Shown: positions 1,366-59,184 of the stretch, piece after piece
Numbering within the stretch: the first letter of the stretch is position 1
Layout of the letters: every line of letters starts with the position of its first letter
From: Candidatus Kaiserbacteria bacterium
Lineage (GTDB): Bacteria; Patescibacteriota; Minisyncoccia; Phycocordibacterales; JABAAK01
Length of the DNA: 64,000 nucleotides
Direction of reading: 5' to 3'
Assembly: GCA_026713605.1 (NCBI GenBank)
Contig: JAPOOC010000010.1
Coordinates: 10,556-74,555 of the forward strand
Position numbers and translations under genes: made by a program
The notes under the pieces: model-generated
Seen by the model: the letters and a program-made list of their open reading frames with translations, nothing else
Databases searched by the model: none
Told to the model about the DNA's origin: nothing

Positions 1366-1382
1366 TGTGTCTGTCGGGAGGT

Positions 1383-1479
1383 GGTACACTTTCTTTATCT
1401 TGTATGATTACTCTTATATCCCGTGTGCAGAGGTGGTTGGATGGTATTACCATGTATCGTGTCGTGACGGGTGGACTTT
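1383..1479. repeat. 97-bp direct repeat, copy 1 (identical to 2035..2131)
   Basis: Base-for-base identical 97 nt (GGTACACTTTCTTTATCTTGTATGATTACTCTTATATCCCGTGTGCAGAGGTGGTTGGATGGTATTACCATGTATCGTGTCGTGACGGGTGGACTTT) to 2035..2131; it encodes the same peptide (TLSLSCMITLISRVQRWLDGITMYRVVTGGL) in both copies. Confidence 0.9.
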
Positions 1480-1480
1480 T

Positions 1481-1930
1481 TCACTCTTTTACGAGCCACA
1501 AAGTGGCTTGTGCAGTTGAGGAAAAAAGCATTGCTTTTGGTTCGTGTGGAGGGTATTTATTACGCTCATTGTATTTCTTTACCATTCCTGGCGATTCTAA
1601 AATGCTCCGCAATTGAGATTCTGGGTAACGAGACCCGAATTCGGTTAAAAATTGAGTGAGGGATTCGTGGTTGTTGCAGTCGTCCTCAATGCTAATAGCG
1701 GAAAGGTCATCGGCGTCATCTGGTTTGACTGGTCTTGCATTTTCATCGTTTTTTGTTATTACCAACTTTGAGTACCCCATTTCTTTAATTTCCGCAATCT
1801 TTTCTGAAAGATATCTCTTTTCTTTCTGAGATATCTCATTTATTTTTTCCTGTTTTTTTGGTGGTTTTTGCTCTTTGCTATTAAACTTTTCTGGCTTCAT
1901 GCTTGTATTATAACATCCTAATTTTGCCAC
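1481..1930 (-). CDS. hypothetical Lys/Glu-rich protein encoded on the insertion between the 97-bp repeats
   Basis: 149-aa ORF that exactly fills the 555-bp segment between the two repeat copies; charged, low-complexity N-terminus (KPEKFNSKEQKPPKKQEKINE); no recognisable domain. Confidence 0.4.
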   Translation of the reverse strand: MAKLGCYNTSMKPEKFNSKEQKPPKKQEKINEISQKEKRYLSEKIAEIKEMGYSKLVITKNDENARPVKPDDADDLSAISIEDDCNNHESLTQFLTEFGSRYPESQLRSILESPGMVKKYNERNKYPPHEPKAMLFSSTAQATLWLVKE

Positions 1931-3573
1931 ACTTCAATCGGTACTCCATGATATGTGTGGAAAACATGGAAAGATCAATGGACAAGCGGTATTTCTGTCT
2001 GTTGTGTGGCTGTTATTCTTTTCGGCTGTCAAATGGTACACTTTCTTTATCTTGTATGATTACTCTTATATCCCGTGTGCAGAGGTGGTTGGATGGTATT
2101 ACCATGTATCGTGTCGTGACGGGTGGACTTTGTTTTTTGGTGGTGGTGAGTTTTTTGTTGGGGTCTGTAGGATTGGTGTCGTACAGTTTTTCTGATCAGG
2201 TTACTTCGTTAGTTGTTGCGCTTGGTGTTGCTGTAGTGAGTAATGTGGTGTTTGCGCGACTGTTTCGGGTTTCTGCTCAGCATGAGTCGGCAGTTATTAC
2301 GGCGTTGATTATTTTCTTTCTTGTTATTCCCGCGACTTCGTTTTCCGGACAGTGGGTTGTTGCTGTCGTTGCTTTTGCTGCTGTCGCTTCAAAGTTCCTT
2401 TTTGTGTGGAGGCAGCAGCACATTGTTAATCCTGCTGCGTTTGGCGTGCTTGTACTCAGCGCACCCGGTTTGGTTGAAGCAGCGTGGTGGATTGGGAGCT
2501 TTTGGTTGTTTGTACCACTTGTTATCGTCGGATTTCTCGTTGTGATGAAAATACGGCGATGGCCACTTGTGTTGTGGTGCATCGGCACTGCGTTTATTGT
2601 GTATGTGTTTGAGGCGTGGCGACTCGATCTTTCTATCTCTTCTTCTGTACCCACCTTTTTCTTGTCGTGGCCTATATTGTTCCTTGCGTTTTTTATGCTC
2701 ACCGAACCGTTCACTACCCCACCAACAAAAAAAATGCAGATGTATTACGGCGCGCTGGTCGGCGGTCTTTCAAGTGCTGTTTTTTTCGCACCATATATTG
2801 CGATGTCTCCTGAACTTGCGCTGATCATTGGTAATCTTACCTTCTTCTCCTTTTCTTTGCGTAGAAAATTGCACCTCACTCTTATTAGAGCAAAGGAGGT
2901 TGCTAAAAATACCCGAGAGTTTGTTTTCACAAAACCGGAAGATGTGCGGTTTCGCGCTGGGCAGTATCTCGAATGGATGTTGCCGCACAGGAAGCCAGAC
3001 AACCGAGGGGTGCGACGATATTTTACTATTGCTTCCGCGCCGCACGAGGATGTGTTGCGGATTGCGGTTCGATTTTCTGAGGGTGGGAGCACCTATAAGC
3101 AGGCATTGCGGCAACTTGCACCTGGTGATTGTATTATTGCCAGTCAACGAGCTGGAGATTTTTTGCTACCGGATGACCCGACAAAAAAACTTGGATTTGT
3201 TGCCGGCGGGATTGGTGTTACCCCGTTCTTGAGTCACTTCGGAGACATCGCACGGCAGGGTGTGCCGCGGGATATTGCTCTGTTCTACTGTAATAACACA
3301 AGTGAGGAGATTGCGTATAGGGACATGCTTGATGCGCTTACTGATTCCGGTCAGTGTACTGTGGTGCATATCTTGGCGGAGGAGAAAGTGGTGGGGTGTG
3401 AGTATGGCTTGTTGACTGAAGATGGTATTAAAAAGTACACGCCTGATTATCAGGATCGGCTTTGGTATCTCTCTGGTCCTCCGGGGATGGTGTATGCCTA
3501 CACCACGCTATTGCAAGGCGTGGGTGTGCCAAACCGCAATATTGTTCGTGACTTCTTTCCCGGATTAGCGTGA
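1903..3573 (+). CDS. polytopic membrane protein fused to a C-terminal FNR-like FAD/NAD(P)H-binding oxidoreductase domain
   Basis: About 8 predicted TM helices in the first ~330 aa. C-terminal RRYFTIAS (RxYS FAD motif) and GGIGVTPF (GGxGxxP NAD(P) motif). The start is ambiguous (ATGs at 1903, 1966 and 2056); the 5' end is duplicated upstream at 1383. Confidence 0.7.
   Translation: MYYNILILPHFNRYSMICVENMERSMDKRYFCLLCGCYSFRLSNGTLSLSCMITLISRVQRWLDGITMYRVVTGGLCFLVVVSFLLGSVGLVSYSFSDQVTSLVVALGVAVVSNVVFARLFRVSAQHESAVITALIIFFLVIPATSFSGQWVVAVVAFAAVASKFLFVWRQQHIVNPAAFGVLVLSAPGLVEAAWWIGSFWLFVPLVIVGFLVVMKIRRWPLVLWCIGTAFIVYVFEAWRLDLSISSSVPTFFLSWPILFLAFFMLTEPFTTPPTKKMQMYYGALVGGLSSAVFFAPYIAMSPELALIIGNLTFFSFSLRRKLHLTLIRAKEVAKNTREFVFTKPEDVRFRAGQYLEWMLPHRKPDNRGVRRYFTIASAPHEDVLRIAVRFSEGGSTYKQALRQLAPGDCIIASQRAGDFLLPDDPTKKLGFVAGGIGVTPFLSHFGDIARQGVPRDIALFYCNNTSEEIAYRDMLDALTDSGQCTVVHILAEEKVVGCEYGLLTEDGIKKYTPDYQDRLWYLSGPPGMVYAYTTLLQGVGVPNRNIVRDFFPGLA
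2035..2131. repeat. 97-bp direct repeat, copy 2
   Basis: Identical to 1383..1479; it lies inside the 5' end of the membrane oxidoreductase gene. Confidence 0.9.
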
Positions 3574-3582
3574 GTTTTTACC

Positions 3583-4098
3583 TTGCTCTCGTGGTATAGT
3601 GATATTTATATGCCTCTCATTCCCATTGTTCTTATTATTGGTGTCGTTGTGATTGCGGGTTTTGTTTTTTTTATGCTCCCGAGCAGGCAGTCGCCGGAGC
3701 CACCAGCACCATCCGCGGCAACGACGGTTACTGATGTTGCTCTCCCCCTTACCCCATCATTGGAGCGTCGCATAGAGGATGTTGTGTTGTTGCAAACGAA
3801 CACCTATCGCAACGGCACTTATACCACTCATGCATCGTACTACACACCGAAGCGGCAAAAGCATGTTATTTCTGTTACCCTTTCGTTGCAGGACGATGTG
3901 ATTACTGCCGCTGATGTGCAGTATGACAGTGCTGCGGCAAAAACACCGAGCCACACACGGTTTGACGGTGCGTACGAGTCGCTCGTTCTTGGTGTGGAGA
4001 TGGATGACCTTGATCTTTCGCGGGTCGGCGGCGCATCTCTTACCACGACCGCCTTTAATGAAACACTGGCGGACATTGCCTCAGATGCATCTTTATAA
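3583..4098 (+). CDS. membrane-anchored protein with a putative FMN-binding (FMN_bind-like) domain; possible flavinylation substrate
   Basis: N-terminal TM helix, then a Pro/Ala-rich linker. C-terminal DLSRVGGASLTTT resembles the Dxx(S/T)GA(T/S) flavin-attachment motif of NqrC/RnfG-type FMN_bind domains. It sits between a flavoprotein gene and apbE. Confidence 0.45.
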   Translation: MLSWYSDIYMPLIPIVLIIGVVVIAGFVFFMLPSRQSPEPPAPSAATTVTDVALPLTPSLERRIEDVVLLQTNTYRNGTYTTHASYYTPKRQKHVISVTLSLQDDVITAADVQYDSAAAKTPSHTRFDGAYESLVLGVEMDDLDLSRVGGASLTTTAFNETLADIASDASL

Positions 4099-4985
4099 TG
4101 GTACAGATTAAGGAAATCCCCGCACTCGGTACCCACTGGTGGTTTGACTTGTTTGCCGTGCCAGCGTCACGAGAAAAAGAGATTGCTGATCGGCTTGTCA
4201 GTCGCCTCAACACCTTTGAGCAACAGTATTCGCGCTTTTTAGATACTTCTTGTGTGGGTGTGTTGAACAAAACTGGCATACTTAAAAACCCGTCTGATGA
4301 ATGCATCTCTCTGCTGCAGTTCGGGCAAAAACTGTACCGAGATACCGGCGGGATGTTTAACTTTCTCTCCGCTCATACGCAAGTTGCGCGTGGCTACGGC
4401 TCTCCTGATAGTGTGCGTGCTGGTGACAGTATGGCGCCCGCGAATCCCACACTTGATCTCGTTATTGATAAGCAGTGCGTTACGCTCCGTCGTGGTGCCG
4501 TTGACCTTGGTGGCTTTGGGAAGGGGTGGCTTATTGATGACTTGGCTGCTCTGTTGCGAACTTCTTTTGGCGTGCAGTATTTTCTTATAAACGGGGGTGG
4601 TGATATCTATGCGAGTACCCTCCCCGACAACTCGCCTGTTGTTATTTTTGTTGAGCATCCAACTGATCAAAAGCGTATTATCGCAAAAGTGCCGCTTGCC
4701 AATCAAGGGTTTGCTGGCTCTGGCACTTACAAGCGTCGGTGGCGACACGCTGATACAATGCACCACCACATCATAGCTGATCATACCGCTGCTATGACGG
4801 CTCACATCATCGCTGACACCGCGCTTACTGCTGATGTCTTCGCGACCCTCGCATGTGCGGTTGCTCCCGCAAGAGTGCCGAAGCTACTCTACGATAACAA
4901 TCTTGAACACCTCCTTATTCAGCGCGATCGTGTTATCTGTTCTGAATATTTTTCGCGGTTCCTCTTTTCATCAGTGGATAAATAA
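4098..4985 (+). CDS. apbE: FAD:protein FMN transferase (ApbE family)
   Basis: 295 aa; ApbE-like blocks DTGGMFN, VDLGGFGKGWLIDD and INGGGDIYA. Confidence 0.8.
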   Translation: MVQIKEIPALGTHWWFDLFAVPASREKEIADRLVSRLNTFEQQYSRFLDTSCVGVLNKTGILKNPSDECISLLQFGQKLYRDTGGMFNFLSAHTQVARGYGSPDSVRAGDSMAPANPTLDLVIDKQCVTLRRGAVDLGGFGKGWLIDDLAALLRTSFGVQYFLINGGGDIYASTLPDNSPVVIFVEHPTDQKRIIAKVPLANQGFAGSGTYKRRWRHADTMHHHIIADHTAAMTAHIIADTALTADVFATLACAVAPARVPKLLYDNNLEHLLIQRDRVICSEYFSRFLFSSVDK

Positions 4986-5048: not shown

Positions 5049-5777
5049 TTACTGTGTGCTTTCAGTGTCGGATTCGGCTGTGTCGGTTTCTACCATATCC
5101 ATTTCAGTGGTTGTATCTGTTCGTGTCTTTTTGTCTGCACCCATTCTGTGGTTGCCCATGCGCTTGTAATCTTTACCCTGATGTCCCCCGCATGCACCGT
5201 GCCCGTGCCAATTAAAGCCACGGTCATCCGTTGAAGCAATTTTAGTGGCGCGTGTGTTGAACTCTTCTTGTGTCATGTCGTCGTAACGGCTCTTGTATTC
5301 GTCACCGAGCAGTGTTTTCAATTCCTGCACCTTTCCAGTGAATGCCGTAAAATCTTTATCCTCTGCCGCCTGTTTGATTGCCTGTTTGATGGCGATCATC
5401 TGCGCTTTCTTTGTGAAAGCACTTTCTGAGAGCTGGTGCATACTTCCTTCGGTCAGAGTTTTGTATGCCTCGTAATCGTTTGCGGAGAATGTGTCGCTGA
5501 TTTGTTTTTTCTTCGCAATTTTTTTCGCCTGTTCTGCAAATTCATCTTGTGTCAAAACAGTTTCCTCGTGTTTTTGATCCATCGCGGCAGTGTATGCATT
5601 GTAGTCCGCGCTTTCAAATGCTTTGTGTATCGCACTCTTGGTCTCTTCAGATACGCCACCGTGTCCGTGATGCCCTCTTTCAGCGAATACGCTTACTGCA
5701 TAGATGCTCACAAGCACTGCAATCAATAGGGCAGTTAGCATTACCATGCTTTTTGTGTTGTATATTTTTTTCATATC
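5049..5777 (-). CDS. secreted His-rich helical-repeat protein, hypothetical
   Basis: Signal peptide MKKIYNTKSMVMLTALLIAVLVSIYAVSVFA. His clusters ERGHHGHGG and NWHGHGACGGHQG. Repeated QEEF/QDEFAEQAKKIA helical segments. The start is moved from the track ORF (5885) to the signal-peptide Met. Confidence 0.5.
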   Translation of the reverse strand, partial: DMKKIYNTKSMVMLTALLIAVLVSIYAVSVFAERGHHGHGGVSEETKSAIHKAFESADYNAYTAAMDQKHEETVLTQDEFAEQAKKIAKKKQISDTFSANDYEAYKTLTEGSMHQLSESAFTKKAQMIAIKQAIKQAAEDKDFTAFTGKVQELKTLLGDEYKSRYDDMTQEEFNTRATKIASTDDRGFNWHGHGACGGHQGKDYKRMGNHRMGADKKTRTDTTTEMDMVETDTAESDTESTQ

Positions 5778-5878
5778 GGTTTTTTTATTTTTTAGCAATA
5801 CATACGATGTGTTTTCGTATGTATTTGTAGTGTAGCATGCGATATGTTTTCTTTGTTGCGTTTTAGGTAGGTATTCTT

Positions 5879-7801
5879 CTACCATTCAAATGCATTCTTT
5901 AGGTGATGGAGCATGCTTCGCGTGTCGGTGAATGCATCTTCTGATTTGAGTATGACGGTTATGATGTGCCCCTTTTGTGAAGGCGTTTTAGCGACGATGG
6001 TGAGATTGTTTTTTGCCCTCGGCGTTGTGCCGGTCTTGCCACCTAATACCTGTAACACGATTTCCTTGTCGGTGAGTAAATCGTTGGTTGTTGCTATCGG
6101 TATTGTTCGCTTCGTGGTTATTTCTGTTATGGTGTGATTGGTTTTTTGGAGGATGGCAAAAACATCTTTCTTGTTTTCAAAAATGTGTTTTAACAGTAGC
6201 GTGATGTCTGATGCGGTTGTGTAGTTTATGTTTTCACTTCCCTCTTTTGGATCAAGTCCGGTTGTGTTGAAGAAATGTGTGTTGAACATTTTTAATTGGT
6301 GGGCGCGGTCGTTCATTTTTTGTATGAATTTTTCTCTGCCGACTGTTTCTGCGATTGCAATTGCTATTTCGTTGTTTGATTCAATGAGGATTGCATGGAG
6401 TGCGTCATTGAGCAATATAGATTCTCCTGTGATAAACCTTCCTGACACACCCTTGCCGTTTAGTGCGCTTTGATTGATGCTAATACTCCTGTCCGACCGC
6501 AGTGTTTCAGACGCAACCAGTGCGGTCATCAATTTTGTTATACTTGCCATCGGTAGTTTTTTTTCTTTATTCTTTTGGAATAGCGTTTGATCTCCTCCGT
6601 TTGTGCTTGTGATTACTGCTACAGCACTGTTTGCAGATAGGATGGGTTCTTCACTACTAGTACTCTTCGGATTAGGATACCGTGTTGTTCTTTGTTGTGC
6701 CATTGGTGTTACTAGCTGCGCCTGCCAAACATCATTTCGCCAACGCCATTCAGCATCCATACCACCAAAAATCCACACCCTGTCTTTGAATACCGCTGAA
6801 AAGAAATCCTCCCTACCCTTCCACTGTGGATCAGTTACTGTTTTTTTCCACCTTATCCCATCTTCTGAATACCATACATTATTCGGTCCTTTGTTTTTTT
6901 TGTCGTTAAACCTTCCGATGAGCCACATCTTTCCTTTATACACCTCCATTGCGTGACCTTGTCGTTGCCCCCATGGCGGGCTGTTGGTTACTAGTCGCCA
7001 GTGCAATCCGTTTTCTGTTACCCACACATCGTTAAAAATCCCTCCGGTTAAATTCATACCGCCTGTCAGGTACATTTTTCCTTTGAATACTGCCGTTGCA
7101 TGATCCCACCGTGATTCCCATGGCATATTCTCTGCCTCCACCCAAGTTATCCCGTCTTCGGAATACCAAACATCGTTTTTTGTCTCTCGATTGTCATAAT
7201 TCACACCACCGATGAGCCAAATTTTATCTTGGAAAATTTCTACCATCTGCCCTTCCCGCGCAGGCCATTCTGCCTGTTTGGTTGCCTGTGTCCAGTGTAT
7301 CCCATCAGTGGATGACCAAATATCATTTGTGTAACCGGTCACCGGACTCCACCCTCCGAACATCCACAACTTGTCTTTGAAAAGTACCACCGACATAGAC
7401 CGTCTCGGTGGCCACTCTGCCGCTGCTACTGCCTGATGCCACCCCATACCATCTTCGGAATACCATATGTCGTTGAAGTGTGGTGCTTTCCAGTAGTCAA
7501 TGGTGTCGTCCCCTCTGATAGTGCTATTGCCGTTGATTCCACCCATCATCCAGAGTTTGTTTTGGAATAGAAATGCTTCACCAGAATCTCGCGTTTCCCA
7601 TGGCGCCGCTGCAGTCACCTCTGTCCAGCGCATGTCATGCCGTCTTACTATCGGTGTCTTTTTTGTGGTGTCGGTTGCTGCTGTATTTTTTTTCTCACCA
7701 TCTTTTTCGCCTACTCCCGCCAATGGGTCAAACATGGTATACATACCAAAAATAAAGAGGGCGAACATACTTGCGAGAATGACAAATTCTAACCACTTCA
7801 T
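5879..7801 (-). CDS. membrane-anchored Kelch-like beta-propeller fused to a D-alanyl-D-alanine carboxypeptidase (peptidase S11) domain
   Basis: N-terminal TM helix. About six repeats of W..(S/T)EDG..W....(L/I)W(M/L)(F/I)GG type. C-terminal SxxK (ASITK) and SNN (ESNNE) motifs of PBP5/DacA-type DD-carboxypeptidases. Confidence 0.7.
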   Translation of the reverse strand: MKWLEFVILASMFALFIFGMYTMFDPLAGVGEKDGEKKNTAATDTTKKTPIVRRHDMRWTEVTAAAPWETRDSGEAFLFQNKLWMMGGINGNSTIRGDDTIDYWKAPHFNDIWYSEDGMGWHQAVAAAEWPPRRSMSVVLFKDKLWMFGGWSPVTGYTNDIWSSTDGIHWTQATKQAEWPAREGQMVEIFQDKIWLIGGVNYDNRETKNDVWYSEDGITWVEAENMPWESRWDHATAVFKGKMYLTGGMNLTGGIFNDVWVTENGLHWRLVTNSPPWGQRQGHAMEVYKGKMWLIGRFNDKKNKGPNNVWYSEDGIRWKKTVTDPQWKGREDFFSAVFKDRVWIFGGMDAEWRWRNDVWQAQLVTPMAQQRTTRYPNPKSTSSEEPILSANSAVAVITSTNGGDQTLFQKNKEKKLPMASITKLMTALVASETLRSDRSISINQSALNGKGVSGRFITGESILLNDALHAILIESNNEIAIAIAETVGREKFIQKMNDRAHQLKMFNTHFFNTTGLDPKEGSENINYTTASDITLLLKHIFENKKDVFAILQKTNHTITEITTKRTIPIATTNDLLTDKEIVLQVLGGKTGTTPRAKNNLTIVAKTPSQKGHIITVILKSEDAFTDTRSMLHHLKNAFEW

Positions 7802-8902: not shown

Positions 8903-8975
8903 CGGGGAATGGTGTAACGGCTAACATGCCCGCTTTGGGAGCGGGTGATTCCGGGTTCGAATCCCGGTTCCCCGA
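8903..8975 (+). tRNA. tRNA-Pro (anticodon TGG), no encoded CCA
   Basis: Cloverleaf with acceptor CGGGGAA/TTCCCCG, anticodon stem CCCGC/GCGGG, loop TTTGGGA, T-arm GGTTCGAATCC. Confidence 0.8.
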
Positions 8976-9057
8976 CTGATTGTTTGAGTGATCATTGAGC
9001 ATTTTTTGACTTATGGGCGTTTGCTGGTTGGGTTTGGTTGTATGGTGTTGGTGTGGG

Positions 9058-9129
9058 CGGAGAGTGGTGTAACGGTAACATACACGATTCGGGTTCGTGT
9101 GACTCCGGGTTCGAATCCCGGCTCTCCGA
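9058..9129 (+). tRNA. tRNA-Pro (anticodon CGG), no encoded CCA
   Basis: Acceptor CGGAGAG/CTCTCCG, anticodon stem CACGA/TCGTG, loop TTCGGGT, T-arm GGTTCGAATCC. Confidence 0.75.
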
Positions 9130-9327
9130 TGCCTGGCAAGGTTCAGATTCATACCATATGTTGTTGTTTGTATCGTTCCGCTGTATACCCTTTTGTTTTT
9201 GTGATTTTTTATATAATTTATTTATATTTTTGTCAAGTTTTTTCACCCCTTGCACTATTGAGGAAAATTGGTGTACTATATAGGTGTCGCCTGTAGGCGA
9301 CTGATTATCAACTAAACGAAACATTTT

Positions 9328-9405
9328 ATGTTTACTATCATGAACCAGGCACCTGGTGGAGACGACAGCGAAGACAACAACAAGATGCCAAGTGACAACA
9401 GCTAG
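9328..9405 (+). CDS. possible 25-aa acidic micropeptide (MFTIMNQAPGGDDSEDNNKMPSDNS), speculative
   Basis: Short ORF in an otherwise gene-free 390-bp spacer; a strong terminator follows; no homology is recognised. Confidence 0.2.
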   Translation: MFTIMNQAPGGDDSEDNNKMPSDNS

Positions 9406-9437
9406 TTTAATTCGACCTACAGAATAGTTTATTCACA

Positions 9438-9470
9438 AAAGCGGAGCGCAATGCTCCGCTTTTGTGTTTT
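9438..9470 (+). terminator. rho-independent terminator
   Basis: Stem GCGGAGC/GCTCCGC, loop GCAAT, flanked by AAA and a TTTTGTGTTTT tail. Confidence 0.65.
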
Positions 9471-9516
9471 AAGTATTCTCTGTATACGCTATACTGCTTA
9501 TGTTCAGTTATGTTCA

Positions 9517-9587
9517 GCGGGCGTAGTTTAGTGGTAGAACATCCGCCTTCCAAGCGGAAAACGAGAGTTCGATTCTCTCCGCCCGCA
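9517..9587 (+). tRNA. tRNA-Gly (anticodon TCC), no encoded CCA
   Basis: Acceptor GCGGGCG/CGCCCGC, anticodon stem TCCGC/GCGGA, loop CTTCCAA, T-arm GAGAGTTCGATTCTCTC. Confidence 0.85.
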
Positions 9588-16359: not shown

Positions 16360-16905
16360 CTATGCGTTGCTGTCGGCAATTCCTGCGATTGGCTTCCGTG
16401 GTGTTCGCTCTTCTGTTTTACCCGCCTCTTGTGTTGGCTTGCCAACAGCTATGGCAGCAAAAATCTCATACTCCTTTCTATCTATACTCAACTCATCGTA
16501 TGCGCGCCCTTCATCAAAGCCACCCATCGCATGTGCGCTGAGTCCAACGAGGTGTGCTTGTAGAGCGAGTGCCATCCACGCCGCACCTGTGTCAAATGCA
16601 TAGTGTCGGTTTTGTTCTCCTGTTTCACTGAGTGTTCGTTTTGCCGCTATAAAAAACAGTGTCCCGGTGTTTTTTGCCCATTCTTGGTTGCCATCAAAAA
16701 GTAGGTTAAGAAATTTCTTTCGCTGATTGTCGGTTTTCGGGTAGAAAAACTTCCACGGCTGCTCGTTATAGCTGGACGGTGTCCAGCGGGCTGCCTCAAG
16801 GAGGATGTTTATTTGCTCCTGCGTGAGGAGGGTGCCGTCGTACTCTCGACTGCTCCACCTGTCAACGAACTGTGGTGCAACCCCTTCTGTTTCAGTTTTT
16901 CTCAT
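16360..16905 (-). CDS. nitroreductase family protein
   Basis: FVDRWSSREY (RxSxRxF-like) and SSYNEQPWKFFY nitroreductase hallmark; the start is moved to MRKTETEG so that the palindromic operator-like site falls upstream. Confidence 0.7.
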   Translation of the reverse strand: MRKTETEGVAPQFVDRWSSREYDGTLLTQEQINILLEAARWTPSSYNEQPWKFFYPKTDNQRKKFLNLLFDGNQEWAKNTGTLFFIAAKRTLSETGEQNRHYAFDTGAAWMALALQAHLVGLSAHAMGGFDEGRAYDELSIDRKEYEIFAAIAVGKPTQEAGKTEERTPRKPIAGIADSNA

Positions 16906-16982
16906 TGCTTGTAGTATAGCAATGGTATTTGTTTCTGTGAAACAGGTGCATTGAAAACCTTGAAAGATGGCGTGGACTACCT

Positions 16983-17021
16983 CCGTGAAACGCGTGAAAC
17001 AGTGTTTCACGCGTTTCACGG
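16983..17021. promoter_or_regulatory. 39-bp near-perfect palindrome CCGTGAAACGCGTGAAACAgTGTTTCACGCGTTTCACGG in the divergent promoter region
   Basis: 19-bp arms are exact reverse complements. The arm CCGTGAAACGCGTGAAACA is identical to 8335..8353. It lies upstream of the nitroreductase gene. Confidence 0.7.
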
Positions 17022-17139
17022 AGTATTCCACAAACGCACCTTTGGTGGATTCAATAGGGGGTGCTTCTTACCTGCTATAGTGTTATTAGGATGTGGTGTG
17101 TTTTTTATCGTTTTTTTATGCTTTTGGGAGGGTTTTTAC

Positions 17140-21898: not shown

Positions 21899-22051
21899 GG
21901 TTGTCGCGAAGGTAACTGCAAGTGGGGGGTGTTCCTGCCAATTGGGTTAAAAAGTTGTGATGGCGAGGGAAAACTCCTGTGATTTGCCTGTATACCTTAT
22001 TTTCAATGTTTTTACTGGTGAATTCCCTATAACCTTGCCAAGTTAAGAAAT

Positions 22052-23251
22052 TTGACAACTAAAGTAAAATTAGTACACTATACTTATATGTATGATAACA
22101 GCACACATAGAGGAAGCGAGGAGCGTCAACAGGGGTGTGAGATATTTTTTCTACAGGTAGGGGAAAATGATTCAGAGAGTAGTCAGAGTGGGGATGCTAT
22201 TGTTCTGACAATGGGCAATCGTTTCAGTAATAATAGGGATGATTATAAAATCATTGTGATTGATGGTGCGTTTACTCATGATGCGCAAACCGTTAAGAAG
22301 CACTTAAATCTTTTGGATGCAAAAAATGAAAATGACAAGTTACAGATTGATTTAATGGTTTCTACACATTCTGATCAGGATCACATAAGTGGTTTGATTA
22401 AGTTGGTGGAAGACGATGATGTTGAGATTAAAAAATTGTGGGTTCATGACTGTAATAAAATTACAGGCAATATTACATGCAGCGTTGATCAGGTAAAAAA
22501 TTTAATTTGGATTGCAGGAAAGAGGGGCATACCTATGGAAGAGCCATTTGCTGGTCTGTCATACAATCCTGATGATATAGATGCTTGTATAGAGGTATTA
22601 GGACCAACAGGAGAATACTATGAGGAATTAATGTGTTCTGTAGATAAGGTATATGTAAAAGGTAAGAGAAAGAACGCTTTTAGTGTTTTAGGAAGAGCTT
22701 GTGACGCATTGCGCAATAGTGTTGGCTCAATGCTTGAGCATGTATTTGATACAGAATTACTGAAAGACCCTGATGAAAATGCAACATCTAATAGTAATAA
22801 TTCTTCAGCAATTTTATTATTAAAATTTTTCAAAAATGATCAAGTGAGTGATCTTGCATTATTCACTGCTGATGCCGGTGTTCCAGCATTGGAGAAGGTT
22901 TTTCCGGCGCTTGAGGAGCATGGTTGGTCTGAATACAGTGTTAAAAGGTTTTTACAAATTCCACACCACGGGAGCAGAAGGAATGTTGGTCCAACACTTT
23001 TAGATGAGTTACTCGGCGAAAAGGAATTTAATTGTAGAAGAGGCTCCTGCTTTGTTTCTGCGCACGAGAAGGATGAGAGCCATCCGAAAGTGCAGGTACT
23101 CAATGCGTTTACAAGAAGAGGTTATAGAGATATTGAAGATATATATCCTGCTAAACGACATCATATGGGTGATACCCCATCAATTAATGGATGGGAGACT
23201 GCTGAGAAGATTGATTTACTGTTAGGAGAGGAGGAGGAAGAACACGATTAA
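22052..23251 (+). CDS. standalone ComEC-C-like metallo-beta-lactamase-fold hydrolase, first gene of the AT-rich island
   Basis: GDAIVLTMGN...YKIIVIDGAF; STHSDQDHISG (TH.D.DHI.G, as in the ComEC MBL domain at 41388..42263); IPHHGSRRN (HHGS motif). Confidence 0.55.
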   Translation: MTTKVKLVHYTYMYDNSTHRGSEERQQGCEIFFLQVGENDSESSQSGDAIVLTMGNRFSNNRDDYKIIVIDGAFTHDAQTVKKHLNLLDAKNENDKLQIDLMVSTHSDQDHISGLIKLVEDDDVEIKKLWVHDCNKITGNITCSVDQVKNLIWIAGKRGIPMEEPFAGLSYNPDDIDACIEVLGPTGEYYEELMCSVDKVYVKGKRKNAFSVLGRACDALRNSVGSMLEHVFDTELLKDPDENATSNSNNSSAILLLKFFKNDQVSDLALFTADAGVPALEKVFPALEEHGWSEYSVKRFLQIPHHGSRRNVGPTLLDELLGEKEFNCRRGSCFVSAHEKDESHPKVQVLNAFTRRGYRDIEDIYPAKRHHMGDTPSINGWETAEKIDLLLGEEEEEHD

Positions 23252-23253
23252 TT

Positions 23254-23754
23254 ATGAAAAGATTAATACAAATAATGACAACTTATAATTTATTAAATTA
23301 TCTATTGCCGGGCATCTTGTTTGTCATTTTTGCAAATCATTTTACCTCGTATTCCTTTTTACAAGAGAATTTGATAATAGGGGGTTTTTTGTACTATTTT
23401 ATAGGTATGGTAATTAGTCGAATAGGGTCGTTATTTATTGAGCCATTCTTAAAAAAAATTCGTTTTTTAAATTTTGCTAATTACAAAGATTTTATTTATG
23501 CTGGCAATAAGGATGAAAAAATAGGAGTTCTTTCTGAACAAAATAATCAATATAGAACCATTGTGGCATTTCTAGTATCAATTGGTTTACTGAAAGTGTG
23601 GGAATTATTTTCTGATTATTTGAACTTAAGCCAATTTGCGGAAGCGGTGATTATTTATGTGGTTCTTTTGATAATATTTTTAGTTTCGTATAGGAAACAA
23701 ACAAATTATATAAGGTCAAGGGTTGAGGCAAACAAAAAAGAGGGCGGGTCATAA
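23254..23754 (+). CDS. small 4-TM membrane protein, hypothetical (island gene)
   Basis: 166 aa with four hydrophobic helices; starts 3 nt after the MBL gene stop; AT-rich. Confidence 0.5.
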   Translation: MKRLIQIMTTYNLLNYLLPGILFVIFANHFTSYSFLQENLIIGGFLYYFIGMVISRIGSLFIEPFLKKIRFLNFANYKDFIYAGNKDEKIGVLSEQNNQYRTIVAFLVSIGLLKVWELFSDYLNLSQFAEAVIIYVVLLIIFLVSYRKQTNYIRSRVEANKKEGGS

Positions 23755-23886
23755 AATAAACATTACAGCCCACCTTGCTAAATTAAGAAAATCCACATAT
23801 TTTGATATAATTCAATATTTTTACCTTATACTATTAGTGTATGTGGTGTGCTATGTGCCGTTTTCTTTCTTCAGGTTTCTTTACTT

Positions 23887-25779
23887 GCTATGGTTGAGAA
23901 AAGTTACAAGATTGGCGAAGTGGCAGAGATGTTGGGGGTGCATGAGGACACCTTGCGAAATTGGGACGCGCATGGGTTGGTGGTGGCAGACAGAGTAGGG
24001 ACGAGGAAAGATAGGAGGTATACAGTGGAACACATAAAGCAGATAAAGGAGAAAGGGCTTGTGTCTGATCTTGCGAGGCGGCAGCCGAGCGGTCGGGATT
24101 ATTCGGATTATTCAAAGGAACAGTTGATTAAGGAGTTGCAAATATTGAAAGAACAGAGAAAGTACGGACTTGTGTGGGAAGATAAGCCGGAAGAGGTTGT
24201 TGAGATGTGTAAGACACAGGCACCCATCTTAAAATCAGTTCCAAAAATGAATGTTGCTGGAAGAAAAGGTGAGCAACGAAATATTATGATAGAGGGAGAT
24301 AACTACCATGCTTTGCAAGTTTTAAACTATACGCACAAAGGAAAGATTGATGTGATATATATTGATCCACCGTATAACACGGGAGCGAAAGATTGGAAAT
24401 ATAACAATGATTATGTTGAGAAAGAAGATGCCTTTCGGCACAGTAAGTGGATTTCAATGCTGTACAAAAGAATGTTATTGGCAAAGTCTTTATTAAAAAG
24501 TGATGGCGTAATGATAGTTACGATTGACGACCACGAATTATTTAGTCTTCTTGGGATTATTGAAGATCTTGATGCTACAACATTGGGTAGAGTTACCGTG
24601 TCAATTAAGCCAGAAGGCAGGCAACAAAGTAGATATGTGATGGAGTCCCATGAATATATTATATTTATGTCTTGGGGTGTACCTAAAATTAGAGGTCTAA
24701 ATATAAATTTCGGCTCAGATTTTACTGAGGAAGATGAAATTTCTAAATTTAAGTGGGAAGGGTTTATGCGTAGGGATGCTGGTCGTGAGGATAGAAGTTC
24801 AAATACTTGGTATCCAATTTATGTAGATCAGCAAGGCAATGTTAGTCTTAAGGAAAAACCAAACACGATTAAAGTGTTGCCTATAAATACAAAAGGCATT
24901 GAACGAGTCTGGCTTTGGTCAGAAGAAAGAGCACAAAAAGATATAAGTGAATTAAAAGCAGTGATCAGAAATAATCGAGCTACTGTTTACTACAAAAGGA
25001 GAGAGCAAGAGCGAGTTAAACCAACCTCAATATGGTTTGGTAGTAAATATAATGCAAATGCATACGGCACAAGACTCTTATCAAGAATCTTGCCGGAGAA
25101 CAATTTCGATTACCCAAAAAGCCTTTATTCTGTGCTGGATGCAATAGATTTATTTTTACCAAAAGATGGGTTGGTATTGGATTTCTTCGCTGGATCAGGA
25201 ACAGCAGGACACGCAGTGATGGAATTAAACAAGGAAGATAGCGGAAGTAGGCGATTTATCCTCTGCACAAATAACGAAAACAACAATGGTAACGGACATG
25301 GTGGGATTGCTGAGAGCGTGTGTCAGCCGAGGATTAAAAAGGTGATGAAGGGATATAAGAAAAATGGGAATGGAGAGAGGGTTGAGGGGCTTGGCGGCAG
25401 TTTGGAATACTTTAAAACAGAGTTTATTGATGTGGAGAATGTGAGTGATGTTCCAGACAAGAAAAGGTTGCGATTTACCCATGAAGCCGGACATGTGGTC
25501 GCTTTGAAAGAAAACGCGTTTACTGAGTTGGAGAAAAATAATTGGTATCAGATATTTACTGATGGATTAGATAAATATGTGGGTCTTTATTTTAGAGAAA
25601 ACATTGAAAAATTAGAGGATTTGGAACAAAAGATTTTAAACAGGGGAGAGGTAAAATTATATATATTTTCACATGGCGGCAGTGATGACTGGAAAAATGA
25701 CTATACAGAGCATGAAAATGTGATAGTTGAAGATATACCAGAGCCGATATTAAAGGTGTATAAAATTTTAAATAGTTAG
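23887..25779 (+). CDS. MerR-type HTH fused to an N6-adenine/N4-cytosine DNA methyltransferase (beta class; Type III Mod-like)
   Basis: YKIGEVAEMLGVHEDTLRNWDAHGLV MerR HTH; IYIDPPYNTG (motif IV) upstream of LDFFAGSGTAGHAV (motif I), the order typical of Type III Mod/beta-class MTases. Confidence 0.8.
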   Translation, partial: AMVEKSYKIGEVAEMLGVHEDTLRNWDAHGLVVADRVGTRKDRRYTVEHIKQIKEKGLVSDLARRQPSGRDYSDYSKEQLIKELQILKEQRKYGLVWEDKPEEVVEMCKTQAPILKSVPKMNVAGRKGEQRNIMIEGDNYHALQVLNYTHKGKIDVIYIDPPYNTGAKDWKYNNDYVEKEDAFRHSKWISMLYKRMLLAKSLLKSDGVMIVTIDDHELFSLLGIIEDLDATTLGRVTVSIKPEGRQQSRYVMESHEYIIFMSWGVPKIRGLNINFGSDFTEEDEISKFKWEGFMRRDAGREDRSSNTWYPIYVDQQGNVSLKEKPNTIKVLPINTKGIERVWLWSEERAQKDISELKAVIRNNRATVYYKRREQERVKPTSIWFGSKYNANAYGTRLLSRILPENNFDYPKSLYSVLDAIDLFLPKDGLVLDFFAGSGTAGHAVMELNKEDSGSRRFILCTNNENNNGNGHGGIAESVCQPRIKKVMKGYKKNGNGERVEGLGGSLEYFKTEFIDVENVSDVPDKKRLRFTHEAGHVVALKENAFTELEKNNWYQIFTDGLDKYVGLYFRENIEKLEDLEQKILNRGEVKLYIFSHGGSDDWKNDYTEHENVIVEDIPEPILKVYKILNS

Positions 25780-25780
25780 T

Positions 25781-26869
25781 ATGAAAAAAATAACATTAAA
25801 ACCATTTCAGATTAATATAATCAAAAGATTGGAAAATTTTTCTTTTCGGAAGTTTGTTGATCTTGATAATTTTTTCAATGTAAAAAATATCGTTTTATTA
25901 TTTGTATTTATCTGGCTTATTGTTGCTTTTTTGTTTATGCATAAAATCGAGATGGAATTATTATCACCTTTGATCAGGATTCTTAGTATTATTGGTTGGG
26001 GAACCATCGGATACTTTGTTATTTGTCATACTGCTGGCTATGGCCTGTATAAGAAAATAATTCCTTGGGGAGAACGAGGAGCGGTAATAAAAATTATTGG
26101 CGTGTGTGTTGGATTATCCATCGGTTGGGTTTTTACATTTTTTGTAAGATGGATGCATGCGCTGCTCTTGAGTGAGGTGCTCGTCATTAGTATTGCTACG
26201 GTATTTGCGATGTTATTTTCTTACCTCGTATTTAGATTTTTCAGATACAGTAATCAAAATATCAAGGGAGGTGTTGCTTACATAGATGGCAATAATTTGC
26301 ATAAGGGGAGTAGGCAATTGGGTTGGGTGTTGGATTATCAAAGATTCAGGCAGTGGTTGAAGGATAAGTATGATATAGAACGGGCAGTAATTTTTATTGG
26401 GTATTTGAAAAAAAATGAGAAATTGTATTCGGATTTGAGAAGTCAAGGTTACGAGCTTTGCTTTAAAGAAGTTTCTTATGGCAGAAGAGGAGAAATCAAG
26501 GGAAATGTAGATTCAGATTTGGTGCAGAAAGTAATGGAAGATTACTCGGAGGAAAAGTTAGGAGAAAATAGTGTTGTTATAGTTTCTGGTGATGGTGATT
26601 ATGCACCGAATATACGATTTTTAAAAAAGAAAGGATTATTTAGAGCGTTGCTTGCTCCATGTAATGAAAGTCAAATGAATAATGGTAAAAGATCTGGAGT
26701 TTCTGTGTTGCTAAAAAAATTAAATATACGAATTGATTACATTGGTAACCATAAAAATGTATTAGAGAAAAAGAAAAGGCGCCCAGCGAAGACGATACAT
26801 CGCAAGGCCCCAATTCATCGTGATAATAAAATTGTATCTAATAATGAGAAAAATGTCAATATTTCATAA
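25781..26869 (+). CDS. membrane-anchored NYN-domain (LabA/PIN-like) predicted ribonuclease
   Basis: About 4 TM helices in the N-terminal 170 aa, then AYIDGNNL...GNVDSDL...VIVSGDGDY NYN motifs. The first 11 aa (MKKITLKPFQIN) are shared with the next gene. Confidence 0.65.
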   Translation: MKKITLKPFQINIIKRLENFSFRKFVDLDNFFNVKNIVLLFVFIWLIVAFLFMHKIEMELLSPLIRILSIIGWGTIGYFVICHTAGYGLYKKIIPWGERGAVIKIIGVCVGLSIGWVFTFFVRWMHALLLSEVLVISIATVFAMLFSYLVFRFFRYSNQNIKGGVAYIDGNNLHKGSRQLGWVLDYQRFRQWLKDKYDIERAVIFIGYLKKNEKLYSDLRSQGYELCFKEVSYGRRGEIKGNVDSDLVQKVMEDYSEEKLGENSVVIVSGDGDYAPNIRFLKKKGLFRALLAPCNESQMNNGKRSGVSVLLKKLNIRIDYIGNHKNVLEKKKRRPAKTIHRKAPIHRDNKIVSNNEKNVNIS

Positions 26870-26880
26870 AGGAGAATAAT

Positions 26881-29112: not shown

Positions 29113-29223
29113 AAGTTATTTTTCCCATGTGATAATCATGTTCTTGTTCCCTGTCTGGATACCCCTCTTTTTTATAAAATTTATAAAACTGTTAAGTGAG
29201 TAGATGGCGGGAAACATTTTAAA

Positions 29224-29256: not shown

Positions 29257-29367
29257 TATGTATTCTAGTCCGCTCTTGGGAAGTTGTACTTGAAATGAAG
29301 GAGTGTTTTGAAAGTAACTTGCACGATATGTACAATCCTTTGCTTACTAAGTATATACTGTTGGTGT

Positions 29368-38339: not shown

Positions 38340-38355
38340 TTTGTGTCGGTTTTAG

Positions 38356-38744
38356 TGGAGGTGGCGGGAATTGAGCCCGCGTCCATGTCAACTGTCCTCT
38401 AAAGGTGTTTTACATAGCATCTGCACATGATAGGTTCTGTGCCGACCAATGTCTCTGCTTTTTTTGATGCTCCGGTTATAGCAGGGGATAGAGCCGAAGT
38501 CACTTTTTCTCGCTTTCTTACACCCGTACGGATTAGCGAGAATCATCCGTGGGATGGCTCATACCTTATTTGGATGAGCGAGGCATTTGCGTCGCCTAAG
38601 CGAACGCAGGTGCTGAGCTATTGATAAACTCAGTAAATGCCCGTGCAAATTTGTTTTTGTTTGCAACTTGTGGATGTTTTAGATGATCTCTCATCACTAT
38701 GCACCTATGGGGGACTGTGTTAACTGTCAAGGCCTGACACCCCC
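38356..38744 (-). ncRNA. ssrA: tmRNA (SsrA); proposed tag reading frame 38664..38596 encodes ANKNKFARAFTEFINSSAPAFA*
   Basis: 5' GGGGGTGTCAGGCCTTGACAG... acceptor pairs with 3' ...GCGGGCTCAATTCCCGCCACCTCCA (tRNA-Ala-like T-arm and acceptor). Internal ORF begins with the GCA resume codon and ends ...AFA-TAG. smpB is directly adjacent. Confidence 0.75.
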
Positions 38745-49292: not shown

Positions 49293-49379
49293 GTGTACAG
49301 TATACTCCAGTGAAATGTGTACAACTTTCCTGTGTGATAAAAGGTGGTATTCTATAGGTATATGGTAAACCCAAAGGAG

Positions 49380-54617: not shown

Positions 54618-54624
54618 ACCCCTT

Positions 54625-56319: not shown

Positions 56320-56369
56320 GGCACCATGCTACCACCACTATTCCCGTGCCACTCTTTTGTTATTTTTCT

Positions 56370-56378
56370 TTATCCACA
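56370..56378 (+). promoter_or_regulatory. perfect DnaA box TTATCCACA upstream of dnaA
   Basis: Exact consensus 9-mer, 60 bp upstream of the dnaA start, in an AT-rich spacer. Confidence 0.6.
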
Positions 56379-56438
56379 AAAAACACACTCCTCACACCCT
56401 TGCTTTTTACTACTACAGTAGGGAATAATAAATGATAT

Positions 56439-59149: not shown

Positions 59150-59184
59150 TTGTATTCCTTGGTGCTATACGGTATACTTGTGCT

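Follow-up and report, generated by a model that had tools for sequence, protein, structure and literature searches.

A stand-alone 'NQR/RNF-like' (half-Rnf) module for flavin-based transmembrane electron transfer is probably encoded, with a likelihood of about 0.68, by three adjacent or overlapping genes of Candidatus Kaiserbacteria, found in a stretch of 64,000 nt (contig JAPOOC010000010.1 of assembly GCA_026713605.1, positions 10,556 to 74,555; hereafter the window). The genes code for a fusion of an NqrB/RnfD-like membrane domain to an FNR-type domain, a small anchored subunit with a divergent FMN_bind domain, and an ApbE protein without leader (Table 1). The original prediction had called three forward-strand ORFs (1903..3573, 3583..4098 and 4098..4985) and read them as a set for flavinylation and electron transfer. 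All three ORFs are real, and the reading is supported and essentially right, each check that it had suggested having turned out in its favour, as is the remark that respiratory genes are otherwise missing, none being found elsewhere within the 64 kb. The type of module has already been published on bioinformatic grounds, and the locus adds little beyond that description; it confirms the system in Kaiserbacteria.

Genomes of CPR/Patescibacteria are tiny and generally code for no electron-transport chain, which raises the question of how these organisms reoxidise NAD(P)H and run redox chemistry at the cell surface. A compact three-gene module, very widespread in the group, is a plausible answer, and one tractable for heterologous expression. 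NAD(P)H would reduce the FAD of the cytoplasmic FNR-like domain in the 505-aa protein, and electrons would then cross via flavin(s) held non-covalently in the membrane domain. ApbE would attach FMN covalently, as a phosphoester derived from FAD, to Ser152 of the small subunit at the outer face, and electrons reaching Ser152-FMN would pass to some extracytoplasmic acceptor. The module would in effect correspond to the RnfC-RnfD-RnfG arm of Rnf, with the fused FNR domain replacing RnfC and the covalent-FMN loop of RnfD deleted; a CPR bacterium that has no respiratory chain would thereby gain a way to dispose of electrons from NAD(P)H, or to bring reducing power to the cell surface.

Table 1. Features of the locus (window coordinates).
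Feature	Position	Strand	Basis
Perfect direct repeat, 98 bp	1382-1479 and 2034-2131 (span 1382..2131)	.	Repeat search
Insert, 554 bp	1480-2033		Bracketed by the 98-bp repeat copies
Fusion gene, 505 aa (10-helix NqrB/RnfD-like membrane domain and C-terminal FNR-type FAD/NAD(P)H domain)	2056..3573	+	Pfam, homology, AF2
Membrane domain, aa 1-271	2056..2868	+	Pfam PF03116, hhalign to RsxD
Cytoplasmic FNR-like domain, aa 272-505	2869..3570	+	Pfam, Foldseek, phmmer vs PDB
FAD motif RRYFTIAS, aa 320-327	3013-3036	+	
NAD(P)H motif GGIGVTP	3205-3225	+	
NAD(P)H motif SGPPGM	3472-3489	+	
Small subunit, 162 aa from ATG 3610 (ORF opens at TTG 3583, 171 aa)	3610..4098	+	
N-terminal TM anchor of the small subunit	3610-3678	+	
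Predicted flavinylation site SRVGGAS152LTT (Ser152 codon 4036-4038)	4018..4047	+	
Leaderless ApbE FAD:protein FMN transferase, 295 aa	4098..4985	+	PF02424, alignment to E. coli ApbE

Gene starts and conservation of the trio

The fusion gene exists, as its Pfam matches indicate, but the start originally assigned to it (TTG 1903, for a product of 556 aa) is wrong. The true start is ATG 2056, because the resulting protein is 100% identical to a 505-aa NCBI protein from a Kaiserbacteria MAG, and homologs mostly have a length of about 500-525 aa. Bases 1903-2055 fall partly inside the 554-bp insert, which is unique and missing in relatives, and the true 5' end of the gene is carried by the downstream copy of the repeat. 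The small gene is likewise real, and its product has one TM helix, at the N-terminus, as well as a GGAS motif; it probably opens at ATG 3610 (MPLIP...), as nearly all homologs do, rather than at TTG 3583.

The duplication and insert at the 5' end of the fusion gene, and the presence of RnfD-like and RnfG-like pieces only, could denote the remnant of a decaying Rnf/Nqr operon, or a mis-assembly, with no coherent function. This explanation is disfavoured, and we regard it as very improbable: the ORFs are intact, an intact copy of the gene lies downstream of the insert, the 120 homologs listed are about 50-80% identical and have invariant cofactor motifs, and the trio recurs in at least 65 species-level genomes.

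Across 80 related loci, almost all from CPR/Patescibacteria, these three genes alone are conserved as a set. Their arrangement is kept in 58 of 84 loci, and the association persists through changes of gene order and orientation. Fusion, small subunit and apbE genes were found at 77, 68 and 65 loci, respectively, of the 77 left after de-duplication. With a small-subunit motif that does not vary among 52 homologs, and a trio kept in 58/84 loci, the signal is far above chance. Other Rnf/Nqr core subunits (RnfA/E/B/C, NqrA/D/E/F) are missing both in the window and among the conserved neighbours of the 77 loci, and no conserved acceptor enzyme was found among the neighbours of the module in the same set.

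The fusion protein

PF03116 (NQR2_RnfD_RnfE) matches the ORF 1903..3573 with E=1.6e-10 (41.3 bits, cutoff 27.7), PF00970 (FAD_binding_6) matches the same ORF, and PF00175 (NAD_binding_1) matches the protein at 45 bits (cutoff 22). The AF2 model of the 505-aa protein has a pLDDT of 89.6 and a pTM of 0.85. The membrane domain aligns to E. coli RsxD over 211 columns (hhalign, probability 88%, E=3e-6), and NHES, QH-x-x-NPA, WW and MLTEPFTTP are conserved in it. The domain is of the flavin type (NqrB/RnfD) and not of the heme type, a point that the original prediction had left to be checked; the specific likeness to NqrB/RnfD had been missed. The flavinylation loop of RsxD (GISQAT-PLD) is absent, the aligned segment being missing in hhalign comparisons, and an outward loop (SAPGLVEAAWW, nt 2458-2490) stands in place of the flavinylation loop of RnfD. 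Moreover, any [STG]G[AS][ST] motif is missing from the membrane domain in 182 of 191 family members. More speculatively, the NqrB-like domain may couple electron flow to ion translocation.

Charge and hydrophobicity indicate an N-in/C-in topology for the membrane domain. The side on which the FNR-like domain lies had been left to be checked: it is cytoplasmic, since the N-terminus is inside and the TM helices that precede the domain are even in number. The FAD motif and both NAD(P)H motifs of Table 1 are present in it, and the protein ends with DFFPGLA. The two-domain fold, the R-x-[YF]-[ST] FAD motif and the GGxGxxP NAD(P)H motif of FNR-like reductases are all present. Best Foldseek matches are GcoB (5ogx, 1e-16), Hmp (1gvh) and NqrF (8a1t_F, 1.6e-14), the likeness to NqrF emerging also via TIGR01941. 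The nucleotide used is predicted from the motifs to be NADH or NADPH.

The small subunit and its predicted flavinylation site

The small subunit is made up by the TM anchor, a linker rich in Pro, Thr and Ala, and a divergent FMN_bind domain (aa ~70-171). The original prediction had made its case depend on this domain, which is assigned by transitive homology, by the fold match to 3O6U and by the invariant site. PF04205 matches 19 of 52 close homologs (best 3.4e-5), and five syntenic orthologs score 22.3-31.7 bits (cutoff 22). The AF2 model of the domain (pLDDT >90) has a beta-beta-beta-alpha-loop-alpha topology, and the top three PDB fold matches found by Foldseek are all chains of 3O6U, the reference structure for FMN_bind (probability 0.98-0.99, E 0.009-0.02, TMt 0.43-0.48). 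The match is modest, E being about 0.01 and TM 0.43-0.48. What counts against the assignment is the behavior of the window protein itself, which has no match in Pfam (PF04205 included) or NCBIfam, scored nothing against PDB sequence profiles, and was negative when directly aligned to E. coli RsxG by hhalign. FMN_bind is absent from the precomputed Pfam domains of 63 homologs.

Residues R147, G150, A151, S152, L153 and T154 are invariant among 52 aligned small subunits. In the AF2 model the last helix (152-169) begins at S152, and the site is a helix N-cap. SRVGGAS is the sole credible flavinylation motif within the window. Compared with the canonical recognition motif of ApbE, described as D-x-x-[S/T]-G-A-[S/T] (PMC12052999), S-R-V-G-G-A-S keeps the G-A-S core and misses the Asp and the first S/T, which counts against flavinylation of the window protein; orthologs feature D-K-V-S-G-S-S or D-I-V-S-G-A-S.

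A degenerate motif lacking Asp and first S/T, next to an ApbE without leader, would also fit a protein which is not the transferase of the small subunit. Such an ApbE could be a cytoplasmic FAD pyrophosphatase or an Ftp-like flavin chaperone, supplying FMN or loading non-covalent flavin into the membrane protein, the small subunit binding flavin non-covalently or not at all; FAD pyrophosphatases are reported among ApbE/Ftp homologs (PMC4767422). We consider this improbable, since G150, A151, S152 and their flanking residues do not vary over more than 50 sequences, and relatives show a continuous gradation of the motif towards the canonical D-I-V-S-G-A-S. Replacement of the Asp is described as having only a minor experimental effect (PMC12052999). 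Finally, apbE co-occurs with the small gene in 65 loci, and in the window it is translationally coupled to this gene, its start overlapping the small-gene stop (TAATG).

The side of the membrane on which the FMN_bind domain resides is a point on which the readings diverge. The anchor of the window protein (MPLIPIV...) looks uncleaved, and has neither lipobox nor AXA site. Distant orthologs in other lineages bear signal anchors with a K/R n-region, lipoboxes, or an RRR+lipobox signal, and the FMN_bind domain is therefore taken to be exported. Alternatively, the small subunit could be oriented N-out/C-in, and its domain, flavinylated in the cytoplasm, would shuttle electrons from the FNR domain to the membrane domain, which would reduce an acceptor in the membrane or outside, or pump Na+/H+, as NqrB is thought to do. 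The signals of the orthologs speak against this relay, which is unlikely on balance, as does the net acidic flank C-terminal to the anchor (mean 2.0 D/E vs. 0.8 K/R), which favours C-out; yet in 53 of 80 small subunits an initial 'MPx' leads straight into the TM helix, K/R being absent before the helix and usually present once behind it, and all 65 ApbEs from 65 modules lack a leader. Cytosolic ApbEs that act on cytosolic targets have been described (PMC12052999), but the FMN site of RnfD sits in an outward-facing loop, and the published AF-multimer model places the subunit outside (PMC10979944). In 25 of 77 loci the module lies next to an ATP synthase operon, which would suit the relay; adjacency falls to 6 of 35 when loci with full flanks are counted, and seems to reflect synteny.

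ApbE without leader

The third protein is an ApbE, as predicted, with a PF02424 match at E=4.3e-32 (112 bits) and intact catalytic motifs (ALGTHWW, GFGKGW, NGGGD, H224, TADVFAT). GT, SRF..DS, GKGY, NGGGD, His224 and ADxxAT are kept across 65 ApbE sequences. The window protein aligns from residue 5 across the whole mature domain of E. coli ApbE (4xgw). No signal peptide or anchor was found in it, nor in any of the 65 module relatives; E. coli ApbE, the positive control, does have a leader. The ORF is not extendable upstream, the HMM begins at residue 1, and hydrophobic segments are missing.

Characterised ApbEs typically have an N-terminal lipoprotein or secretion signal, though this is not strictly defining. 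The lack of a leader in the window protein and in 65 relatives conflicts with flavinylation outside the cell, and counts against the export reading; the original prediction had overlooked this complication of the extracytoplasmic step. A tentative solution, which we hold possible and rather doubtful, is that the leaderless ApbE flavinylates the small subunit in the cytoplasm, before or during export or insertion, and that organisms lacking a respiratory chain have in the trio their principal, self-contained outlet for NAD(P)H. The export route might be Tat-like in actinobacteria, and some other one in CPR. If true, FAD export would not be needed, and extracytosolic flavoproteins would have a maturation route apart from the paradigm of the periplasmic lipoprotein ApbE. 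The uniform lack of a leader bears in any case on the place and manner of flavin attachment. The pairing of a leaderless ApbE with an export-signalled target is a point absent from the literature searchable here.

Comparison with known systems

Na+-NQR shares with the module an NqrB-like membrane domain, an FAD/NADH domain (that of NqrF) resembling the FNR domain, a flavinylated NqrC-like subunit, predicted as such here, and ApbE as maturation factor. In contrast, NqrA, NqrD, NqrE, Fe-S centres, evidence for a quinone site and the Thr236-type site of NqrB are all missing in the module; we know of no quinone pool in the CPR host. Rnf (E. coli RsxCDG; A. vinelandii 8AHX), the electron pathway of which is established by structural work, has a homologous membrane domain in RnfD, an FMN_bind partner like RnfG, and a cytoplasmic NAD(H)-binding module feeding the D subunit. 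The module differs by lacking RnfA, RnfE, RnfB and RnfC genes, the covalent-FMN loop of RnfD and a ferredoxin side, the NADH module being an FNR-type fusion. Without a ferredoxin side, electrons probably flow in one direction, and the flow need not be coupled to ions. Lacking the other core subunits, and the S/T-G-A-T covalent-FMN loop in the D/B subunit, the module is not a bona fide Rnf or Na+-NQR.

The Ndh2-EetAB-PplA-FmnB system for extracellular electron transfer in Listeria follows the same logic, from cytoplasmic NADH through the membrane to an ApbE-flavinylated FMN_bind protein at the surface and to external acceptors. Its membrane components are unrelated (Ndh2/quinone/EetAB vs. an RnfD-FNR fusion), and FmnB is a secreted lipoprotein, whereas the ApbE described here has no export signal; ECF/FAD export genes are missing among the neighbours of the module in 77 loci. 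A leaderless ApbE with intact catalytic motifs occurs also in Klebsiella pneumoniae, where it serves a soluble cytoplasmic fumarate reductase (PMC12052999), the target here being membrane-anchored and export-signalled.

The closest counterpart is the NQR/RNF-like system defined by Méheust et al. (2021, eLife; PMC8238504), and modelled in Ktedonobacter racemifer by Huang et al. (2024; PMC10979944), an architecture already in print which the original prediction had not recognised. The definition includes an N-terminal PF03116 and a C-terminal PF00175 in one protein, with an ApbE and/or FMN-binding gene at a distance of five genes at most (PMC8238504); the flavinylated Thr of the RnfD-like subunit is described as not conserved (PMC10979944), and the systems are reported from 'Actinobacteria and candidate phyla radiation'. 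Both domains are found in the fusion protein, the genes are adjacent or overlapping, and the Thr is lost. The two-subunit plan with apbE, and the anchored NqrC/RnfG-like FMN_bind subunit, are the same. Different are the divergence of the FMN_bind subunit, too large for Pfam, the leaderless ApbE, and the anchor, which is not a cleavable signal peptide. Experimental characterisation of any family member was not found in the literature searched.

To be counted in the survey, a cluster had to include a Pfam-detected component with a signal peptide, and 127 clusters passed (PMC8238504). Much of the family escapes both Pfam FMN_bind and filters based on signal peptides, and clusters of this kind may therefore have been under-counted. 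For comparison of scale, the small subunit alone counts 3,265 representatives at 50% identity.

The three-gene locus and its assignment

All three plus-strand ORFs of the original prediction are present in the window. They encode a fusion of an NqrB/RnfD-like membrane domain with an FNR-type FAD/NAD(P)H domain, a small anchored protein and the flavin transferase ApbE, and the locus is assigned, at a probability of roughly 85%, to the NQR/RNF-like systems. These were described as PF03116+PF00175 fusions clustered with ApbE/FMN_bind proteins by Méheust et al. 2021 (PMC8238504, sections 13 and 23). Huang et al. 2024 (PMC10979944, section 8) modelled the two-subunit complex of Ktedonobacter racemifer, found the RnfD-like flavinylation site unconserved in the membrane subunit, and proposed that the covalently attached FMN of the NqrC/RnfG-like partner samples the pocket in which the membrane subunit holds flavin non-covalently. 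The window locus agrees with these descriptions in its domain fusion, its gene cluster and the loss of the RnfD-like flavinylation site. It is of a known kind, defined bioinformatically and found here in a Kaiserbacteria MAG; a literature search found no experimental characterisation of the module.

Two of the predicted gene starts were moved. The fusion gene begins at ATG 2056 rather than 1903, and its 505-aa product has a 100% identical counterpart at NCBI under the annotation 'RnfABCDGE type electron transport complex subunit D [Candidatus Kaiserbacteria bacterium]'; about 500-525 aa is the length of most of the 120 best matches. For the small gene the most likely start is ATG 3610 (MPLIP...), which almost all homologs use. 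The small gene's stop codon and the ATG of apbE share bases (TAATG), which suggests that the two genes are translationally coupled.

Two identical 98-bp copies of a direct repeat (1382-1479 and 2034-2131) lie on either side of a unique 554-bp insert, which carries a 139-aa ORF and is missing from close relatives. The repeat is made up of 22 nt of upstream sequence and the opening 76 nt of the fusion gene. A truncated 5' copy of the gene thus sits upstream, and the genuine 5' end resides in the downstream copy. Duplication and insert may be genuine, as an insertion accompanied by a long duplication, or may be an artefact of assembly.

The fusion protein

The fusion ORF matches PF03116 (NQR2_RnfD_RnfE; residues 202-312 of the 556-aa ORF, E=1.6e-10, 41.3 bits vs. 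a cutoff of 27.7), as well as FAD_binding_6 and NAD_binding_1 in Pfam; below-threshold NCBIfam matches are to flavohemoprotein reductase, NqrF and RnfD models. By hhalign, the membrane-domain profile aligns with the RnfD of E. coli, RsxD, along 211 columns (probability 88%, E=3e-6); against PDB sequences the one match is a weak one, to an RnfD (8ahx_D, E=0.06). The segment holding the periplasmic RsxD loop and its flavinylated threonine (…GIDGISQATPLD…) is missing from the fusion family, and the window protein has a short loop, SAPGLVEAAWW, in place of the RsxD loop. The pattern [STG]G[AS][ST] is absent from the whole membrane domain in 182 of the 191 family members.

Hydrophobicity and charge analysis and an AlphaFold2 model (pLDDT 89.6, pTM 0.85) indicate about ten helices. 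The N-terminus is K/R-rich, as are alternate loops, which carry K/R clusters, and the linker SLRRKLHL preceding the FNR domain. This distribution, with about ten helices, points to an N-in/C-in topology, in which the FNR domain is cytoplasmic, as had been proposed, and the shortened loop faces outward. The FAD/NAD(P)H motifs noted earlier are found in the C-terminal half as RRYFTIAS, GGIGVTP and SGPPGM, and this half is a typical FNR-type reductase by Foldseek (GcoB, 1e-16; flavohemoglobin; NqrF, 1.6e-14). With the full 505-aa model, all of the 50 Foldseek matches listed are to the FNR domain; the NqrB/RnfD-like assignment of the membrane domain comes from the sequence matches. The PF03116 and RsxD matches point to a membrane domain of the flavin rather than the heme type. 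A heme- or Fe-S-based membrane domain was rejected: no such Pfam match or other sign was found, and the domain is homologous to NqrB/RnfD, a flavin-binding family.

The small protein as a divergent FMN_bind domain

In the small protein, a low-complexity linker rich in Pro/Thr/Glu joins an N-terminal TM helix to a domain some 100 residues long. Clustering at 90% leaves 63 homologs, nearly all of them without annotation, and an exhaustive library holds 3,265 representatives (50% identity, E<=1e-3). Searched directly, the 171-aa ORF has no match in Pfam or NCBIfam. The family profile gives noise only against PDB sequences, NqrC/RnfG not being among the matches, and nothing against the single sequence of E. 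coli RsxG (hhalign, probability 0.4%). Because this direct comparison is negative, the FMN_bind assignment goes through transitive Pfam matches and the fold.

Three syntenic orthologs (L079, L055, L084), matched by the small-family HMM at 5e-27 to 5e-36, score above the Pfam FMN_bind gathering score; two more (L074, L081), matched by that HMM at ~1e-5 only, reach 30-32 bits. FMN_bind is matched individually by 19 of 52 close family members (best E 3.4e-5), and no rival family comes close. The AlphaFold2 model of the domain (pLDDT >90) runs from three strands through a helix and a loop to a last helix, which starts exactly at Ser152 (numbered on the 171-aa ORF). Its best PDB fold matches are three chains of 3O6U (probability 0.98-0.99, E 0.009-0.02), the reference 'FMN_bind1' domain in Huang et al. 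2024 (PMC10979944, legend to Fig. 1).

The GA(S/T)-like attachment motif of the original prediction lies in an essentially invariant segment, L-S-R-V-G-G-A-S152-L-T-T-x-A-F-N. The motif recognised by ApbE has been defined by experiment as D-x-x-[S/T]-G-A-[S/T] (PMC12052999, section 8); the window protein has S-R-V-G-G-A-S, and relatives have D-K-V-S-G-S-S or D-I-V-S-G-A-S. A motif search of the whole 64-kb window yielded no other credible flavinylation site. Transitive matches and graded motif together argue for a divergent but genuine FMN_bind domain, Ser152 being the predicted flavin acceptor.

Some of the 3,265 relatives carry 2-7 tandem copies of the domain; the family, with proteins P0184-P0187 and P0206, extends to multi-repeat members in which as many as 7 domains are packed into 1,005 aa. 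These are reminiscent of the published 'multi-flavinylated proteins'. Two tandem small-subunit paralogs are found in some genomes (loci L002/L025, L004, L019, L032, L034, L036 and L041).

ApbE lacks an export signal

The ApbE identity predicted for the third ORF is borne out by a match to PF02424 (E=4.3e-32) and by the family signatures (GT, SRF..DS, GKGY, NGGGD, an invariant His and ADxxAT), kept across 65 module ApbEs. The window protein aligns from its own fifth residue to the mature E. coli enzyme; it has no export signal, and the ORF cannot be extended upstream. A hydrophobic leader is found in 0 of the 65 distinct module ApbEs, and the family HMM begins at residues 1-8 in nearly all. In the positive control, E. 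coli ApbE, the same procedure detects the lipoprotein leader, HMM position 6 lying at residue 38. For the 12-residue hydrophobicity maximum, E. coli ApbE scores 2.68, the module ApbEs 0.82 at the median and 1.74 at most. In the few longer ORFs the extensions are non-hydrophobic and overlap the upstream gene out of frame. On this ground, and because homologs share the C-terminus of the small protein, a frameshift that fuses the small gene to apbE and so tethers ApbE outside was rejected.

The lack of a leader is the sole aspect of the locus going beyond the published description. Known cytosolic ApbEs have soluble, cytosolic targets (PMC12052999). The small subunit looks exported, judging from signals in distant orthologs, which include signal anchors with K/R n-regions, lipoboxes (LSGC in L055, MVGC in L053) and an RRR+lipobox signal in Cellulomonas. 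Export is also favoured in the 'MPx' group, small subunits starting directly at the TM helix, by a net acidic flank on the C-terminal side of the anchor. Flavinylation in the cytoplasm prior to export of the small subunit is one possible explanation. Another is that the FMN_bind domain faces the cytoplasm in some lineages. Unconventional export of ApbE, or a role of ApbE other than that of a transferase, are possible too.

Proposed electron path

NAD(P)H would reduce the FAD of the cytoplasmic FNR domain, and electrons would pass to the flavin(s) of the NqrB/RnfD-like domain, a step suggested by homology, since NqrB and RnfD hold riboflavin and FMN. They would then move to the FMN on Ser152 of the anchored small subunit, at the outer face, and from there to a final acceptor. 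The module would effectively correspond to the RnfC-D-G arm of Rnf, the fused FNR domain replacing RnfC. The minimal NAD(P)H-to-extracytoplasmic chain originally envisaged is supported by the domains, the topology, the conserved trio and the published match; the mechanism in full is fairly likely, less so than the assignment of the locus.

Conservation of the trio

A scan of species-representative genomes gave 80 loci, nearly all in Patescibacteria/CPR (Paceibacteria, Kaiserbacteria, Parcubacteria, Daviesbacteria, Levyibacteria and others), plus one in Cellulomonas and one in Kapaibacterium. The full trio is found in 58 of 84 loci, most exceptions being broken by contig ends, and the association is kept despite altered gene order and orientation. 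Over 77 de-duplicated loci the trio is the sole conserved gene set (77, 68 and 65 loci). The next commonest neighbours, UDG (25), Fpg (23) and ATP synthase subunits, look like lineage synteny. Conserved neighbours at the 77 loci include no other Rnf/Nqr subunit; no conserved terminal reductase, flavin/FAD exporter or second ApbE occurs among them or in the window.

In 25 of the 77 loci (6 of the 35 with full flanks), though not in the window, an F1Fo ATP synthase operon is found no more than 8 kb from the module, on one side or the other; this proximity is probably lineage synteny, and is compatible with an energy-coupling link. In 12 loci, in two arrangements, the module directly adjoins an anchored His/Cys-rich protein of 215-235 aa (HVHGDFRMY...HFHDG...HRH...C-x-C motifs, N-terminal anchor), a candidate extracytoplasmic partner or acceptor.

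Other features of the window

Features of the window and of two related loci
Feature	Position	Strand	Remarks
139-aa ORF in 554-bp insert	1481-1900	-	Lys/Glu-rich N-terminus; no Pfam match
Fusion ORF	1903-3573	+
Small-protein ORF	3583-4098	+
apbE	4098-4985	+	295 aa
Anchored/secreted protein, His-rich ends (HHGHGG...; HGHGACGGHQG...)	5049-5885	-	no Pfam match
Kelch beta-propeller + D-Ala-D-Ala carboxypeptidase (Peptidase_S11) fusion	5879-7801	-	640 aa; N-terminal anchor
Nitroreductase-family protein	16360-17031	-
MerR-fused N6/N4 DNA methylase	23848-25779		low-GC island
NYN-domain protein	25781-26869		low-GC island
ResIII/SNF2 helicase	26881-29112		low-GC island
PQQ-type glucose/sorbosone dehydrogenase homolog (GSDH)	29308-30504	+	E=2e-73
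tmRNA	38353-38744	-	68 bits
TrwB/TraG/HerA-like coupling ATPase	within 46132-52415	-	891 aa
recJ, comEC	within 54000-60500	-	before dnaA
dnaA	56439-57803	+
dnaN	58040-59149	+
yidC	59663-60430	+
His/Cys-rich neighbour, locus L026	5772-6479	-	no Pfam match
His/Cys-rich neighbour, locus L039	5674-6333	-	no Pfam match

The His-rich protein converging on apbE (gap 64 nt; 278 aa, or probably some 242 aa if read from an internal ATG) is missing at the same position in the close relative L001/L005; it could be a metal-binding surface protein. It was tested as a counterpart of the recurrent His/Cys-rich neighbour, and is not homologous to it. The Kelch/Peptidase_S11 fusion also adjoins the module in L001.

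Elsewhere the window has housekeeping content (dnaA, dnaN, yidC, polA, fusA, ftsH, pgk, tpi, lysS, the CCA-adding enzyme, a restriction-modification island and others), and the absence of other respiratory genes holds across the 64 kb. The GSDH homolog and the nitroreductase-family protein are the sole further redox enzymes noted; enzymes of the GSDH type are usually extracytoplasmic and need an electron acceptor. The low-GC island (~22000-29200; GC 0.36-0.39 vs. about 0.47, AT skew positive) is likely a horizontally acquired restriction-modification or defence island. The genes at 46132-52415, among which a 1,023-aa ORF adjoining the coupling ATPase has no Pfam match, may belong to type IV secretion or DNA-uptake related machinery. 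At 54-56 kb the GC skew turns negative locally, and the 54000-60500 segment is probably the replication origin region. Eight tRNA genes are found in the window, three of them clustered at 8903-9587.
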